A DNA stretch of 64,000 bases from Octopus sinensis (Eukaryota): the NCBI RefSeq assembly GCF_006345805.1, contig NC_043023.1, forward strand, positions 12,772,001 to 12,836,000. Reading direction: 5' to 3'. The notes under the pieces are model-generated. The model was not told the DNA's origin and searched no databases. It saw nothing but the letters and a program-made list of their open reading frames with translations. Position 1 is the first letter of the stretch; each line of letters starts with the position of its first letter. Both the position numbers and the translations under genes were made by a program. Below are positions 3,858 to 64,000 of this stretch, one piece after another.

Positions 3858-4495
3858 CTAGTCTTGCCGGGTCTTCTCACGCACAGCATACTTCCATAGG
3901 TCTCGGTCTCTAGTCATTTCCATGGTGAGACCTAACGTTCGAAGGTCGTGCTTCACCACTTCGTCCCAGGTTTTCCTGGGTCTACCTCTTCCACGGGTTC
4001 CCTCAACTGCTAGGGATTGGCACTTTCTCACACACCTATCTTCATCCATTCTTGCCACATGACCATACCAGCGCAATCGTCTCTCTTGCACGCAACAACT
4101 GATGCTTCTTAGGTACAACATTTCTCTCAGGGAACTAACACTCTGTCGAGTAAGTACACTGACATTACACATCCATCGGAGCATACTGGCTTCATTCCTC
4201 ATGAGCTTACGCATGTCCTCAGCAGTCATGGCCCATGTTTCACTGCCATGTAGCATGGCAGTTCGAACACATGCATCATACAGTCTGCCCTTTACTCTGA
4301 GCGAGAGGCCTTTAGTCACCAGCAGAGGTAAGAGCTCCCTAAACTTTGCCCAGGCTATTCTTATTCTAGCAGTTACACTCTCAGCGCACCCACCCCCACT
4401 ACTGACTTGGTCACCTAGATAACGGAAGCTATCAACTACATCTAATTTTTCCCCCTGGAAAGTGACGGAAGTTGTTTTCTGCAGATTTTCGGAGG

Positions 4496-4499
<4 letters not shown>
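3858..4499 (-). CDS. RTE ORF C-terminal part (RT motif 7 and thumb region)
   Basis: VDSFRYLG, RIRIAWAKFREL, LHGSETW, RLRWYGHVARM. Confidence 0.85.
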
Positions 4500-5809
<1,310 letters not shown>

Positions 5810-35593: not shown

Positions 35594-36025
35594 ACCCGGC
35601 AGGACAAGTGAGACCATAACCCATGGCCTCTACCTGGGATGTAGCCAGTCCACTTATGCATAGCTTTCCTTCTAGGGACACAAAACTCTACTTGTGAAGA
35701 CCTGTTGAGGCAAGTGAGAATCAGAATCCAAATCGAAATCAATCAACATCAATGGAAATTGTAGCTGTGATACCAGTGCTGGTGGATCGTAAAACGCACT
35801 ATCCGATCGTGGCCATTGCCAGTCTCCCCTGGCCCCTGTGCCGGTGGCACGTAAAAAGCATCCACTACACTCACAGAGTGGTTGGCGTTTAGGAAGGGCA
35901 TCCAGCTGTAGAAACACTGCCAGATCAGACTGCAACCTGGTGCAGCCTCTTGGCTTCCCAGACCCCAGTCAACCGTCCAACCCATGCTAGCAGGGAAAAC
36001 AGATGTTATACAATGATGATGAGGA
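35594..36025 (+). mobile_element. RTE 3' tail downstream of ZNF E
   Basis: Same junction as 7120. Confidence 0.85.
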
Positions 36026-36134
36026 GGATTCTCTATTGTTTCCTGTGACAGACAGCTGTTCTTTTGTGTACTGGACATTTCCAATGTTTTGTTATTAAAC
36101 ATTTTGTAAAAATAAAATTTTTTTTGCATGCTTA

Positions 36135-36534: not shown

Positions 36535-37597
36535 TATATGTATATTGTGATTACATTTTCTTTTGAGTTGTCATATTTTGTGCCACATCTTCTGAGTAAT
36601 CGGTAGCCATCTTATTTCTGGTGCCACTACAAACTTTCTATTTTCATGCCCCGCACTCAAGGGGAAGCCTTGTAGTGACGCCTGGTCCCAAACGCTATTA
36701 TAGGATTTTCAACCATGCATGCGCAGGGGTTAGAACCTGTCGGAAGCCCCTTATGCGCATGTGCAGTCATCAGCATCAGCTAGGCTTGACCGCCGTCCTC
36801 GCTCTCTCTCTTCGCCCCTGCTTCCAACCAAGCCGGACGCAACTTGACCAGCTCCGTGTGGCTGGAATTCTGAAGGCGATCCATGACTTCGGCGAATCTG
36901 TGAAGTATGCCTTCACAATCGTGATTAAAATGTCTCTGCTGTTTCCGCACCAAGGCGACCTAGCTACTGATTGTCCAGAGATGTAACGCTTGTACAGACA
37001 GAACAATAAATATTGTTATTTGTTCAGAGATCCTTGTTTTATTGATTTTTTTAATGGCTCTTCGGGGTGACTGGGGAAATGTAAAGATGTGCACGACCAC
37101 CCTTGGACGGTTTTGACCATAGAAAGTGCGAGCCCTCTAACTGAAAAATTGTGGATTTGTATAAAGGACACGCACACACAGACAGACATTTGGCCATTTA
37201 TATATAGAGAGACTAGCAGTATCGCCCGGCGTTGCTCGGGTTTGTAAGGGAAATAATTATATAAGCATTTTTAGAGATGTAAAGTATAATAGCCATCTCA
37301 ATATGGCTAACCACAAAGGGGGAGGGGTGTTACTGTAGCTTTTTACGTTCTGAGATTTAATAATAAATTTTAGAGAGTTACTTCCCTTATATATGTCAAA
37401 AATGGGAAAAATTGATGGTAAATTTTTTTTTAAATCGTAGACTCATCGTAGACGCGCGCTAATACCCAGACGGTCTCGATATGAATCACGACTATAAGAT
37501 ACCCGGTTTTGGTTAAACTGCACCGCAAAATGTGGGAGTAGTTAGGAATCTAAATCGTAGGAGACAGACACACAACCTCACTTTTATATATAAAGAT

Positions 37598-38019
37598 TTC
37601 CTCTATTTACATAATATTAAGGTCTCTTTCTTTCTTTTGTTATCTTACTGTTTTTACCAATATACATATATATATATATATATAAATATATATATAGTTA
37701 CAGAGATGTACTTGCATAGCAAGTGACTTGATCTGAGATCGTGTGCTGGAACGAAAACAGTTGCAGCGTTGAAGGTGTTTATAAGCCATTTAAGAAACAC
37801 ACAAAAACCGTTAGATTCACTTCAACATTTAAATTTAATTTGTCAAAATATTTTCGTCGCTTTGAGACCGCGACCTGTTAGCACGATATTTTTGTCAGTG
37901 AACAGGTCGCGGTCTCAAAGCGACAAAAATATTTTGGCAAATTAAATTTAAATGTTGAAGTGAATGTAACGGTTTTTGTGTGTTTCTTAAATGGCTTAGA
38001 AACACCTTCCACGCTGCAA
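37598..38019. mobile_element. Penelope-like pLTR fragment with an inverted duplicate
   Basis: 37761-37879 is inverted at 37901-38019; carries a minimal hammerhead-like motif; TA microsatellite flanks. Confidence 0.55.
37891..37941 (+). ncRNA. Minimal type I hammerhead-like motif, G3:C8 variant; this copy has G12A
   Basis: tttgtca GTGAACA g gtcgc-ggtctcaaa-gcgac (A/G)AAA atat TT tg(g/a)caaa; the inverted copy keeps GAAA and tgacaaa. Confidence 0.55.
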
Positions 38020-40900
38020 TATATATATACACACATATATATATATGTATGTATGTATGTGTGTATATGTGTATGCATGTATGTGTGTGTGTGTGCGTGT
38101 CTGTGCTTGTGATTGTCCTCCACCACTGCTTGACAACGAATGTTGGTTTGTTTACATCCCTGTCACCTAGTGGTTTGACAAAGGAAACAGATAGAATAAG
38201 TACAATGCTTACAAAAATAAAACTGGAGTTGATTCATTAAACTACAATTCTTCAAGGCATTGCCCCAGCATGGCCACAGACCAATGGCTGGAAAAAGCAG
38301 AAGAATAAAAGAATACATTCTCTGCTTTGGTCTTATGTTCAAGGCATGAGAAAGCTTGAGTTTACATGAGAAGGCCTAACAGACCTGGTAGAAACAGCAG
38401 CCAAATCTCCCTCAAATCACACCTTACAAAATCACACCTTACTGTCTTATCTATGTATATATGTATGTATGAGCCTATGAGGGAGACCCCTACATGGCAG
38501 CTAGACATGGTAGAAATAGCAGCCAAATCTCCCTCAAATCACACCTTACTGTCTTATCTTTCTGCTACTTGGATATAGGTGTTATATTCGTCGTAAAAAA
38601 GTTTCCTGTCACACACTCACACACACACACACACACACACGCACCCTCACACACACACAGACGCACACACACACGCACGTTAGCTTACAATTTTATTTAT
38701 ATATTTGCGTGTGTATGTGTGGAAAGAGGAAGTGGGAGGCAGAGTGAAAGAATCACTCACTACAGTAAGTGAATTAGTTTCATTTTATTCGTTGCCGACT
38801 GTGTGTGTGCGTTTGCGTGTGGTGTAAACCAGACTAAGAAAAGCATTTGACACACACACCAGAATGTGAGTTTTCTGTAAATTTTGCTTAATTGGAGTTT
38901 AAATTTTAAAAACTGGACCTGGCATGACGCGATGCATTGTACTCTTAAAAATGCTAGGTAAATTGTAATTGAAGAAATCCTATATTGTAGATTTGTATAA
39001 CTCCCAAAGGGAGGCAGATAAAATCTGCCTTTTATAATAAGAGATGTTGATGTAATTCAGCCTGAGGAGACATCTACAGCTGGCTACACGACATGATCTG
39101 TTTATATTCGCGAGTGCCCGTTCTCCATATTTTATTTGTTAGTATAAAATACTTTTAAAAATGGAAGACTTAGCAAGACCAGTGAGAACAGTCAAAATCA
39201 AAATCAAACCAAATCAATTCATATATCAGAAAGCAGAACCAAATTGAGGTCGATCAACATCAGTGGGAATTGCAGCTGTGGTTAAGCGAACCATCCAATC
39301 CTGGTCGTTTCCGGCACCGCACCGTCTAGCCTCCGTGTCGGTGGCATGTAAAAGCACCACCCGTTCGTGTCCGTTGCCAGCCTCACCTGGCCCCCGTGTC
39401 GGTGGCACGTAAAAGCACCATCCGTCCGTGGCTGTTTGCCAGTTCTGTCTGGCACCTGTGCGGGTGGCGCGTAAAAAGCACCCACTACACTCACGGAGTG
39501 GTTGGCGTTAGGAAGGGCATCCAGCCGTAGGAACACTGCCAGATCTGACTGGGCTTGATGAAGTCTTCTAGCTTCACAGACCCCAGTTGAACCGTCCAAC
39601 CCATGCTAGCATGGAAAACGGACGCTAAATGATGATGATGATGATGATGATGAATCTTCCTAATTTTCTGCAGATTTAAGAATTAGCTTTTAGATCTGTA
39701 GGTCAAAAGGTAAAAATCACAGCGCTTCTCTATTTCCTTTCATAATTGGGCATTATGTTGGGAGTGGGTCCATCTTTTCCCTCCCCGTTGTCATTGGAAG
39801 AATTAATCAACCTTCGAATATCGAACGCACGACACTACATTCCATCCACTGACGGTTCTCTCAAAGTAGCAACTTAATTATACATGAGAGAAAATAGATC
39901 ACTGTGATCATCATCATCCTCATTGTTTAACGTCCGATTTCCATTCTAGCATGGGTTGCATGATTTGATTGAGGACTGGCGAACCAGGAGGCAGCACCAG
40001 GCTTCAATCTGATCCGGCAGAGTTTCTACAGCTGGATGCCCTTCCTAACACCAACCAGCTGTAGAAACTCTACCAGATCAGATTGGAGCCTGGTGCTGCC
40101 ATCTGGTTCGCCAACTCTTCTCTGGGAATAATGGGGATCTTTTCGGTTTGAACGGCAGGTTTTTAAATTTCTAGGTAACTAAAAAAGTTTTAAACTTCGT
40201 ATACAGATAGAATGTATTTATAAAGCATCTTTTTCGTTGGCTCTATTGAGAAAATTCTGTAGTTTGTAACATATTTGTTGTTTTTTTTTCTGCAATTTCA
40301 ACCAATCAATGACGTCTACTGAGGTAAAAAAAAACATTATGTGCCTTATGAATATGTCCCTCGTTTAAGAAACAGATTGGGTTTATTTACATTTTTGAAG
40401 AAAAAAAGATACCCTTCCTCCACCCCTAACCCTAACACAGATTGAAATACAATAGATCGATACAAGGGTCATAATTATGGGTGACAATTTCATATGACAC
40501 CGCTACAAAAAACTGCCGGTCAAACCGAAAAGATCCTTTTTTTTTACACAAAGTAAATAATAAGGCGATGCTTCCATATATAAGTACGCACGTGACTTTG
40601 TTTACATTTGTGAAGATAACAGAAAGCCTTTTCTCCCCACTTCTAACCCTAACACGTGGAAATTATTTTCAAAAACTGCCGTTCAAACCGAAAAGATCCC
40701 AAATATCTTACAAACTGTAGAATTTTCTCAATAAAGCCAAGAGAAAAAGATGTTTTATAAACACATTCTACTAGTATACGAAGTTTAAAAGTGTTTCGTT
40801 ACGTGGAAATTATTTTAAAAAACTGCCGGTCAAACGGAAAAGATCCCCAAAAGGTATCCAAGCATTGTTCTTTAGATGAGAGAGAAGTGTGAAGGAAGGA

Positions 40901-41058
40901 CAATGATTGGACAGGAGAGAAAATGACGTCAGAAACGGATCGGAAGTGCAACGGCCTGACGTCACATCAGGAAGATATAAGTCAAAGATGCCTTCTTTCT
41001 TTCGGTGTCTGCGACGGGGTCCAGTTCGTGCGCTGGAAACGGTCGTAGATTAGAATAT
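40901..41058 (+). promoter_or_regulatory. Putative promoter and exon 1 of ZNF F
   Basis: Same motif set as 17387-17544. Confidence 0.65.
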
Positions 41059-43679
41059 GTGAGTGTATATATTCTATATTACCTTGAAGGTAAAATCGTT
41101 GACAGAATGGGACAAAGAAGACACCGGAACGAAACGAACCAGTCATAGAAAATTGAAGAACTATAACCATATAAAGGGATATAACTTTCCTTAATTAATT
41201 AATTAAGGTGCTTAATTAACGATCACTGACTCGTTGTTTGTATCTGAATACGGTAAGTTGACAAAGATTTATTTTAAGGCTGTAATGATGATGATAATAC
41301 CAATAATAATAAGGTAGTACTAGCGAACAAAGCTTGCTATCGTAAGTAGTCGATCCTACAATTTTTAAAACGAAGTAAATAAATAATTTTTATAAACAAA
41401 CTAAAGTTAAGGTTAAAAAGTCGTAGGATCGACTACATACGACTAGCTAGCACGGATGCCCGAGTGCGCGCACCTGGACCACTGTTCGCTAGTAGTACCG
41501 TGCACCTCTCCAAGATAATGACGCTTACTTGTGAGAAAAAGTTAGGAAATGGGAAATATATCCAGAATACATAAAGTATGGAGGAAATTAGAAAGATTAA
41601 TCTATTTTTTAAATATTTTATACTAAAAAATAAAATACGGAGAACGGGCACTCGCGAATATAAACAAACATATAAGGGTACTATTTAAGAAGAGAGGTCG
41701 CGGTGGGCGCGCTAGCTAGTCGTGACTAGTCGATCCTTACTTTGTATTTTTGTTTTAAAAAAATTATTTTCTTTGTTTGAAAAAATGAGCGTAACTTCGG
41801 TATAGGTACCGGAAGTACCAGATACATTTCAAGAAAGTGTCTTTTTTTTATATATATTGGGGGGGGGTATGGTTAAGGGTTGTGTTAGGGGTGGGAGAAA
41901 AGGGTTTCTGTTATCTTCAGAAATGTAAACAAAGCCACTCACGGTACCTATACCGAAGGATCGCCAAAAAATTATTTATTTTGTGTTTATTTACTTTGCT
42001 AGGCAGTCGTTGTAGGATCGACTAGTCACGACTAACTAGCGCGAGTGCGCGCACCGGGACCACTCTTTTTAAATAGTACCGGAGGAAATTAGAACGATTA
42101 ATGTATTTTTTTAAACTATTTTATACTAAAAAATAAAATACGCAGAACGGGCACTCGCGAATATAAACAAACATGTATGTACGTATACGTATGTATTTAT
42201 GCATATATATGTATTATTATGTATACATATATGTGTGTGTGTAAAGGTGAAAGAAATTGAATATTAATTAATAACATCAAATTCGTATGGATTTTGGCGT
42301 TTGGTTCAGCAAATTATGTTTTTGATATACTCTACCGATGATTCGAAAATGATTTGTAAGTAAAATTACACAATCTATTAACGATGAAACAATTGTATAG
42401 AGTTAATCCATTTTTTCGTTATTTTTCATTTGTCCTGCCCGCTTACATTCTTGGCGTGTTGAATTAATGCTTGAGAACATTTCTTTAGTGGTGGATTCCC
42501 TTTGCGGATCTATTTCTAGCGTTAGAGTGACCACATGTGGTCCCTCTCTTAATACTTGTATGTATATATATATATATATGTGTGTGTGTGTGAATACAAA
42601 TATATTTGTAGTGAATCTTGCACGCAAGAAGTAGATTGGATCCACCAGAGCCAAAATTTTAATTAACCTTTCACCAAAATTTTTCCCATGGCAGAACAAT
42701 AGAGAAATCTGTATACAGAATGTTGTAAAAGTTTCAATGCCTCAATGGATTCTGACCCCTGCAAACATAGACATTAAATGGATGACAGTGTTGATGTTGT
42801 AAGATTTGCAATGTTGAATTACTATGTCGTTTAATGATTCTCTTTATCTCACTTGCTTTTTTTTCTATTTCAGAATATAACATCCTGTTGATATGAAAGA
42901 AATTACTTCATTCAGATGTGCCTCTGATATTTTATCAGCTCCCATCAACCAAAGGAAGATGATATATTTATAAGGAGCATTCATCAATACATCAAACTCA
43001 TCTTATAAAGGAAATCTGTGAAAAACAACAGCAAAATATTTCTTCTGGACGATGGAATTAACAGCAACAATTTGAAGTCTTTGCTGTCTGGAATATAGAG
43101 ATGATTGTTTTACAGGTTAATTAAGCTTGGATAACTTTACAAAGGGGTAGACGATTGTCACCTCTTGATTTAGATATTAAGGAAGATCACAGATGAAAGA
43201 AGCATAGCATTAAATTATTCTCTGAAAATAGCAACACAAATATATTCATAGAAATGAATTTTTTTCCTATTTCAGAATATCATACCATGTTGATTTAAAA
43301 GAAATTTCTTCATTCGGGATGTGTGTCTGATATTTTTATTGACTTTCATCAATTAAAGGAAGACCATATATTCATAAGGCACATTCATCAAAACATCAGC
43401 TTCTTTATATAAATAAAATCTTCGACGAACGATGGGGAAATATTTCTTCTGGATGATGGAATTAAGAGCAACATTTTTTTTGCCATCTGGAATGTAGAGA
43501 TGATGATGAACCTACGGGTTAAGTTTGAGTAACTTTACGAAAGAGTTAACCAATTTATATCTTCTGTTTTAGATATTAAGCAAGATCACCAATGAAAGTA
43601 ACATTTAATTATTCTCTGATGCATTTGAACACAAACATTCATAGAAATGAAACAGATACTATCATTGTGATATGTATAA

Positions 43680-48437: not shown

Positions 48438-52012
<3,575 letters not shown>

Positions 52013-63124: not shown

Positions 63125-63751
63125 TTCATTCATCATTGTTTGACCGTGGTCGAGACAATGGAATTTACCATGCTACGCCAGACTTCACGGTCCATCATAG
63201 CATTACGGAGGTCCTGTTGCTGGATGCCTGTATCCCTGGAGATTACATCAGGGTAGGAGAGTGTGCGCCCTCTGGTATTGCGACCGTGGTCGAGACAATG
63301 GAATTTACCATGCTACGCCAGACCTCACGGTCCATCATGGCATTACGGAGGTCCTGCTGCTGGATGCCTGTATCCATGGAGATTACATTAGGGTAGGAGA
63401 GTGTGCGACTCTGGCATTGTGAGTAGATGGCTTCCAGAGAAGAGTAGAAATTACCTCCTTTTCAGCTCTACAACAATGTCCAGCAAACTGGACTCTCCAA
63501 CCTTTCACAAGAGATGACACAGGTGGTAGTTTCCCATATATTTGCATTTTGGTTGGATGGCGCTTCCACGAGAGATTTTGAGCTCTCATAAGGAGGCGAG
63601 TGTAAGTTCCATCCAACCGCCTCTCAAGCTTCTTTGATAACGTCCAGGTTTCTGAGCTATATAGTAGAATTGGTTCGACTGTGGCTTTGAAGATTTCAAG
63701 TTTGAAGTCTCTACTTAGGTTTGATGACCAGATCTTATGCATGTTATGCAT
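63125..63751 (-). mobile_element. 3' fragment of a second RTE/RTEX-like LINE family with a duplicated ~140-bp terminal segment
   Basis: KLEIFKATVEPILLYSSETWTL...QFAGHCCR; 63142-63268 is repeated at 63282-63407. Confidence 0.75.
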
Positions 63752-63824
63752 AAGATGACTTGCATAAGATTTATGTACACTTAAGTTAGATCTACGAGAG
63801 AATGAATCATAGATACCAACTTCA

Positions 63825-64000
63825 AAATAAAAATCAAATGGGGATTGTAGTTAAGATACCCGTGCCGGTGACACATAAAAAGCACCATCCGAACGTGGCA
63901 GATGCTAGTGCCGCCTGACTGGCGTCCGTGTCGGTGACATGTAAAAGCACCAACCGATCGTGGCCGCTTGCTAGCCTCCTCTGGCACGTAAAAAACACCT
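63825..64000 (+). mobile_element. Start of another RTE 3' UTR, running off the window
   Basis: aaaagcaccatccg sub-repeats. Confidence 0.7.

Follow-up and report, generated by a model that had tools for sequence, protein, structure and literature searches.

A candidate minimal hammerhead ribozyme with a swapped G3:C8 core pair in a likely Penelope-like repeat of Octopus sinensis

Genomic setting of the inverted-repeat insertion

The window analysed here, a stretch of 64,000 nucleotides from Octopus sinensis (assembly GCF_006345805.1, contig NC_043023.1, positions 12,772,001 to 12,836,000), is AT-rich animal DNA in which tandemly duplicated C2H2 zinc-finger genes lie among repeats. The zinc-finger tandem array spans 5400-60100 and is built of multi-kb duplicated units, some with broken reading frames. 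Paralogous remnants of non-LTR reverse transcriptases (RVT_1), RTE-like by eye, are present on the minus strand at 3858-5632 and 49363-50519, with one more non-LTR remnant at 63383-63850, and a SINE-like 300-bp repeat ending in (GAT)n is very frequent (39330-39650, 35770-36030, 39900-40113 and many other places). Another element, at 40128-40850, contains several long segments in inverted orientation and recurs in other duplicated units; the descriptors described below identified no hammerhead in it. The segment at 40935-40975 carries what we take to be an ETS-like (CGGAAGTG) and a CRE-like (TGACGTCA) motif, recurs in several units, and is possibly a promoter of the zinc-finger genes.

Among these features lies a 323-bp insertion consisting of two inverted copies of a short repeat, with (TA)n runs at both ends at this one locus. 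To the right of the left-flanking (TA)n microsatellite (37660-37696), recognised from its sequence, is a 64-nt extension belonging to the minus arm only (37697-37760, minus strand), which has no second copy in the window, is a candidate for a Penelope 'tail' and may form part of the family sequence. This extension carries the insertion beyond the interval 37761-38019 that had been given in an earlier note on this DNA. The 5'-truncated inverted copy (37761-37879, minus strand) and the plus arm (37901-38019) are arranged head to head across a 21-nt spacer and are identical at 114 of 119 positions. Between them, 37880-37890 (plus strand) represents a remnant of the family's short 5' leader, its first six letters being those of the loose-end consensus of other copies, and a (TA)n-rich microsatellite (38020-38045) forms the right flank. 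Neither blastn nor nhmmer identified further copies of the repeat in the 64-kb window; short matches at 40050-41300 and its paralogues were considered as such and rejected.

The insertion is contained in a 1.8-kb block (37213-39044). A paralogous unit at about 15493, 94% identical, lacks this block, and the flanks there meet between A and T with no duplication. The ends of the block resemble those of Helitron/Helentron-type non-autonomous elements.

The hammerhead fold and its swapped core

The plus copy contains a minimal type I hammerhead fold at 37891-37941 (plus strand). Stem I comprises 7 bp including one U.G (37891-37897/37935-37941) and leads into the core GUGAACA (37898-37904), in which G3 (37898), U4, G5, A6, A7, C8 (37903) and A9 (37904) are followed by an extra G at 37905. 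Stem II comprises 5 bp (37906-37910/37920-37924) and opens with G10.1-C11.1, so that both stems close the core and the extra base after A9 is in place. Beyond stem II are A12 (37925), A13, A14, A15.1 (37928), A15.2 (37929), a UA loop, U16.2, U16.1 and U17 (37934), giving a UUU site with a predicted cut at 37934/37935, as numbered by analogy with the supplementary alignment of PMC4209133 in the part covered. The self-complementary AAUAUU (15.1-16.1), which together with U17 occupies 37928-37934, sits in a 10-nt palindrome (37926-37935), and its palindromic 15.2-16.2/loop 3 would permit a dimer. In the minus copy the hammerhead part (37879-37839) begins at A6 (37879), so that the GUG and the 5' strand of stem I are missing, and has C8 and an intact GAAA. 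All statements of the earlier note on the sequence of the hammerhead features in the inverted copies proved correct, including the G12A change of the plus copy (A at 37925) and the loss of the 5' strand of stem I and the GUG from the minus copy; the palindrome, described there as ATAT, is also present and is better delimited as AAUAUU.

Where a canonical core reads C3-U4-G5-A6-N7-G8-A9, G3 and C8 are found in both the window and the family majority, and the motif is therefore filed as a variant rather than as a canonical minimal hammerhead. Despite the swap, a Watson-Crick 3:8 pair, U4, G5, A6 and A9 are all retained, and C8 is read directly in the minus arm as well. The minus arm has the sequence G12-A13-A14, with A15.1-U16.1 and then H17, as does 93.5-97.6% of the family depth, the plus copy having A12. 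Pair probabilities computed for the 51-nt piece are 0.87-1.0 for 11 of the 12 pairs and 0.4 for the outermost one. The folding of a 61-nt piece gives z = -2.6, with 3 of 200 shuffles equally good, and that of the 140-nt plus copy is unremarkable (z = -0.17).

A loose descriptor allowing any Watson-Crick 3:8 pair and G or A at position 12 has the site at 37891-37941 as its sole match in the window. Shuffled windows gave 0.1 matches each (40 shuffles), or 0.05 when GAAA was made strict (40 shuffles), so a match to the loose descriptor alone is weak evidence. The full descriptor adds features of published Penelope-type hammerheads, namely the extra base after A9, G10.1-C11.1 and a palindromic 15.2-16.2, and again has this site as its only match in the window. 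At the loosest setting (G or A at 12, 4-bp stems) it found 2 matches in 1,500 shuffled windows and at the other three (G12 or 7/5-bp stems) none in 1,500 shuffles, the tolerance of A12 and of a swapped 3:8 pair having been set post hoc, after the site was known. Rfam returned no match in the window at gathering score, and the 53 matches obtained for 37600-38100 at E up to 10 included no hammerhead family; microRNA matches in the same interval were below gathering score and were rejected as due to the long hairpin or TA runs.

In the parts of the published work that were covered, the anatomy read here from sequence is that of minimal Penelope hammerheads in all features but the letters at positions 3 and 8. 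The minimal hammerheads of Penelope pseudo-LTRs (Cervera and de la Pena, 2014; PMC4209133) share the type I topology, the extra base, G10.1-C11.1, a tiny palindromic stem III/loop 3 (as in Drosophila virilis and Adineta), a common U17, opposite-strand pairs and a high copy number. They differ in having C3...G8 and a stem I of 4-5 bp, whereas the octopus repeat has G3...C8, a stem I of 7 bp and no linked ORF identified here. Both U17 and 2-nt palindromic loops occur among the aligned Penelope hammerheads, and the four GUGANCA spellings are absent from supplement 2 in the portion covered (PMC4209133). Covariation at 3:8 does have natural precedents in U3-A8 hammerheads (Perreault et al., 2011; PMC3088659), including those of a Penelope-like family, the Cercyon elements of Schistosoma (PMC4209133). 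However, U3-A8 amounts to two transitions that keep a pyrimidine at 3 and a purine at 8, whereas G3-C8 amounts to two transversions that reverse this order.

The G3-C8 pair itself is on record as an engineered variant (PMC11167929, PMC8495972, PMC3884650). In the Poseidon hammerhead of Anolis, a Penelope hammerhead, C3G or G8C alone is dead and the C3G/G8C double mutant cleaves partly, with assistance from protein (Frangieh et al., 2024; PMC11167929), and a review states for hammerheads in general that single changes at 3 or 8 kill and that double changes partly restore (PMC8495972). In the excerpts covered, these sources uphold the earlier assertion that the core tolerates a 3:8 swap. The Anolis variant was made in the laboratory, whereas in the octopus repeat G3:C8 occurs naturally and characterises most copies of the family. 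Among known octopus elements, Hydra-1_Obim and Naiad_Obim/Ovul share (TA)n targets with the repeat, and Hydra-1_Obim carries, close to its 3' end, a hammerhead that likewise has U17 and an additional G following A9 (Craig et al., 2021; PMC8557442). Unlike GUGAACA, all cores in the covered part of File S2 of that paper start with ctga (canonical CUGA), and four words of 11-12 letters from the repeat are absent from its supplement in the portion covered, where line breaks could hide one. A paper on O. vulgaris repeats (PMC13282606) makes no mention of hammerheads in the sections covered, and its supplement has no matching words there. The search used by Craig et al. (2021) relied on a fixed cuganga string (PMC8557442, in the part covered); the G3:C8 form would be invisible to published searches fixed in this way, and Rfam is blind to the site, as anticipated by the earlier prediction that canonical-core searches would miss it. 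No natural G3-C8 hammerhead was found in the covered portions of open-licence PubMed Central and bioRxiv texts, a scope outside which lie Lunse 2017, Repbase and Dfam. The first of these is reportedly a large survey of Penelope-associated hammerhead variants and could contain a G3-C8 form. Within this scope, the motif probably represents a previously undescribed natural form of the core in a ribozyme of known kind, for which cleavage is predicted.

The repeat family in public sequencing runs

Of 24 listed public runs, one of which could be the source sample, 20 contain all or part of the stretch, and 18, carrying five organism labels, contain at least half of its words. A single arm (37880-38019) was aligned at 80% likeness to four of the 24. 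This recovered 928 contigs in X13, 4,979 in X17 and 5,664 in X4, most at 90-99% identity, and none of 12.9 million raw DNA reads in X22, a run that shares its organism label with the best-matching runs; this last result is unexplained and counts as no test. The repeat is thus very abundant and present in high copy number under several organism labels, summed depths having been kept out of copy-number estimates. X13 is RNA by guess only, and contig matches there say nothing firm on transcription. Two RNA runs from insect metagenomes, in which 0.10-0.19 of the words occur, were left out of both the alignment and the evidence. Exact-pattern matches at all 29 of 29 metagenome loci and all 3 of 3 genome loci comprised only 19-30 letters with no extension and were taken as chance, and an exact-pattern scan of viral contigs gave 0 matches.

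The copies collected as contigs from X13, X17 and X4, a check that the earlier note had proposed, have a family consensus that retains GUGAACA and GAAA. At 37925, G accounts for 97.6% (X13), 94.1% (X17) and 93.5% (X4) of the depth, indicating that G12A is a private change of the plus copy; it lies at a CpG site and likely reflects decay after insertion. For 37891-37909, where depth is high, no change of at least 3% is listed in these three runs, and the 5' loose ends with the most support (18, 199 and 183 contigs) start before 37890, so that the alignments span the core. From these two observations together, G3:C8 is the family state and is carried by the great majority of copies, with the reading of missing rows falling short of full proof, as 37999 differs in the loose-end consensus lines and has no row in the table.

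Beyond the local copy's own changes, four positions (37937, 37947, 37967 and 37973) are polymorphic at a level exceeding 15% in one run or more. Of these four, 37937 alone is inside the hammerhead, with A at 72, 42 and 66% across the three runs and otherwise G. As both letters pair with U37895, this is a one-sided, pair-keeping change, and the stem covariation on which the earlier note had staked its reading is present in this one-sided form only; no two-sided compensatory stem change was found among the aligned family contigs, which can be ascribed to the family being too young in the aligned runs. Within stem II and at G12, changes of CpG type have much the same frequency (about 2-6%) as they do elsewhere (1-9%), and this background level in stem II is the pattern expected of dead genomic copies.

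In most copies the 5' boundary seems to be fixed, some 15 nt before stem I begins, and beyond it agreement is 0.5-0.6 over 30 letters. The 5' leader (37880-37890) and the end of the short arm (38007-38020) are complementary at 10 of 14 positions, an unexplained match that may reflect either a helix in the RNA or terminal inverted repeats of poor quality. Among the joint rows, 6 of 12 are opposite-strand joins, and three of these have one side at 37890-37893 in the same layout as at 37761-38019.

Element identity, predicted cleavage and alternative readings

In the covered parts of the literature, Penelope-like elements have an inverted 5'-truncated partner, an optional one-sided tail of 30-40 bp and (TA)n targets (PMC8557442), and their minimal hammerheads occur as opposite-strand pairs 100-700 bp apart (PMC4209133). 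At this locus the repeat has a 5'-truncated inverted partner to which it is joined by its 5' end, opposite-strand joins account for 6 of 12 joint rows, and the repeat is inserted into a (TA)n microsatellite at both flanks of the one locus; its one-sided extension is 64 nt as against the published 30-40 bp. It is therefore likely to be the pseudo-LTR end of a Penelope-like retroelement. No Penelope RT/GIY-YIG gene was identified among the window's 42 ORFs of at least 120 aa, with 9 frames scanned in Pfam, two of which gave RVT_1 and are by eye RTE-type remnants rather than Penelope. A 46-aa open frame over the plus arm had four protein candidates in a weak search, none at E 0.1, and no Pfam match. 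The Penelope-like origin suggested in the earlier note accordingly stands as regards the inverted, truncated and (TA)n-embedded layout, but not as regards a linked RT/GIY-YIG ORF, and the element is named Penelope-like, not a proven member. For a short end-piece, the absence of such an ORF nearby would be expected.

We give slightly better than even chances to the reading that the locus holds head-to-head short copies of a likely Penelope-like pseudo-LTR bearing a type I G3:C8 hammerhead, for which slow self-cleavage is predicted. A Penelope-type RT/endonuclease would have cut both strands of the TA microsatellite, and uncleaved RNA would have been copied twice from a start about 85 nt, or perhaps 149 nt, beyond the site at which the ribozyme cuts, one copy extending almost to the family's usual 5' end and the other stopping within the core before the two were joined. 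Internal priming near the 5' end of the RNA would in this way give rise to short copies with fixed ends. In the Anolis element, as far as the covered text describes it, uncleaved RNA is the insertion template, cleavage requires protein, and priming takes place 111-118 nt into the ORF with the cut site at +26 (PMC11167929); by subtraction, priming there is about 85-92 nt past the cut, and in the octopus repeat 85 nt separate the predicted cut from the end of the short arm.

A G3-C8 pair would replace C3-G8 in the source RNA, where cleavage after U17 would depend either on a second hammerhead, pairing through AAUAUU, or on the element's protein. The AAUAUU dimer helix is predicted to be marginal (-0.2 kcal/mol) and weaker than a rival 10-bp palindrome that buries A13, A14 and U17 (-3.8), and stem III is not formed in the predicted plus-copy dimer. 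Both local hammerhead copies are likely dead, since one has G12A, the other lacks half of the core, and a transcript spanning both copies is predicted to fold as a single long hairpin that contains no hammerhead pairs.

It is also conceivable, though in our view somewhat unlikely, that the family is Penelope-like but amplified from a master copy whose hammerhead by then had little or no activity, leaving G3:C8 as a relic with cleavage unneeded for insertion. Dead hammerhead mutants of the Anolis element insert normally in vitro, and that element showed no RNA ends at the cut site (PMC11167929, in the part covered). A relic would also be in keeping with a stem III made up wholly of A/U and a stronger competing palindrome, with the absence of two-sided covariation in the aligned family contigs, and with copies that would have been made from uncleaved RNA. 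However, the remaining core letters and the two stems are intact in the family majority, the swap compensates exactly, and the single frequent change inside the fold (37937) preserves pairing. We infer that a dead core is unlikely to have gained an exactly compensating double transversion with its other core letters unchanged.

The remaining readings dispense with a Penelope-type origin. An improbable one is a non-autonomous DNA transposon (MITE) some 145 bp long, targeted to TA and bounded by imperfect terminal inverted repeats, whose hammerhead-like fold arose by capture or by accident; its ends would be poor inverted repeats, the minus arm continues for 64 nt, inverted truncated joins recur among the family contigs, and the full Penelope-type descriptor matches the site, as against 0 to 2 matches in 1,500 shuffles. 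It is the 10/14 complementarity of the two ends that keeps this reading alive at a low probability, along with the 5' boundary fixed in other copies and a plus arm that stops exactly at the complementary motif beside TA. A TA duplication would be indistinguishable inside (TA)n. A non-LTR retrozyme, a non-coding unit spreading as tandem repeats via circular RNA, is very improbable. Such a unit would resemble this short non-coding family in its type I hammerhead and in ends able to pair, and five runs guessed to be RNA contain 0.62-0.67 of the words, but that RNA label is a guess. Moreover, the copies here are head to head and not head to tail, with no further copy in the window, and their hammerhead belongs to the minimal Penelope class, in contrast to the canonical ones described for retrozymes in the covered part of PMC7229834.

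Returning to the Penelope-like pseudo-LTR, the stronger proposition that it carries a naturally active G3:C8 hammerhead, fixed in a young, high-copy family of several related animals, is one that we advance only tentatively and with the balance somewhat against it. The function of hammerheads in Penelope-like elements has been called unclear (Craig et al., 2021; PMC8557442), and cleavage is dispensable for insertion in vitro (Frangieh et al., 2024; PMC11167929), in the parts of these papers covered. A family that has kept its 3:8 pair through a double transversion constitutes a natural test of selection on cleavage. If its RNA does not cleave, the motif would be an odd relic within an ordinary repeat. 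If the G3:C8 form is active, the core would have crossed or skirted a dead intermediate and been rescued by a compensating change, which would be direct evolutionary evidence that cleavage is important to these elements in vivo. Surveys based on CUGANGA would then have overlooked a class of retroelement ribozymes, and some Penelope clades reported to be without hammerheads may have swapped ones.
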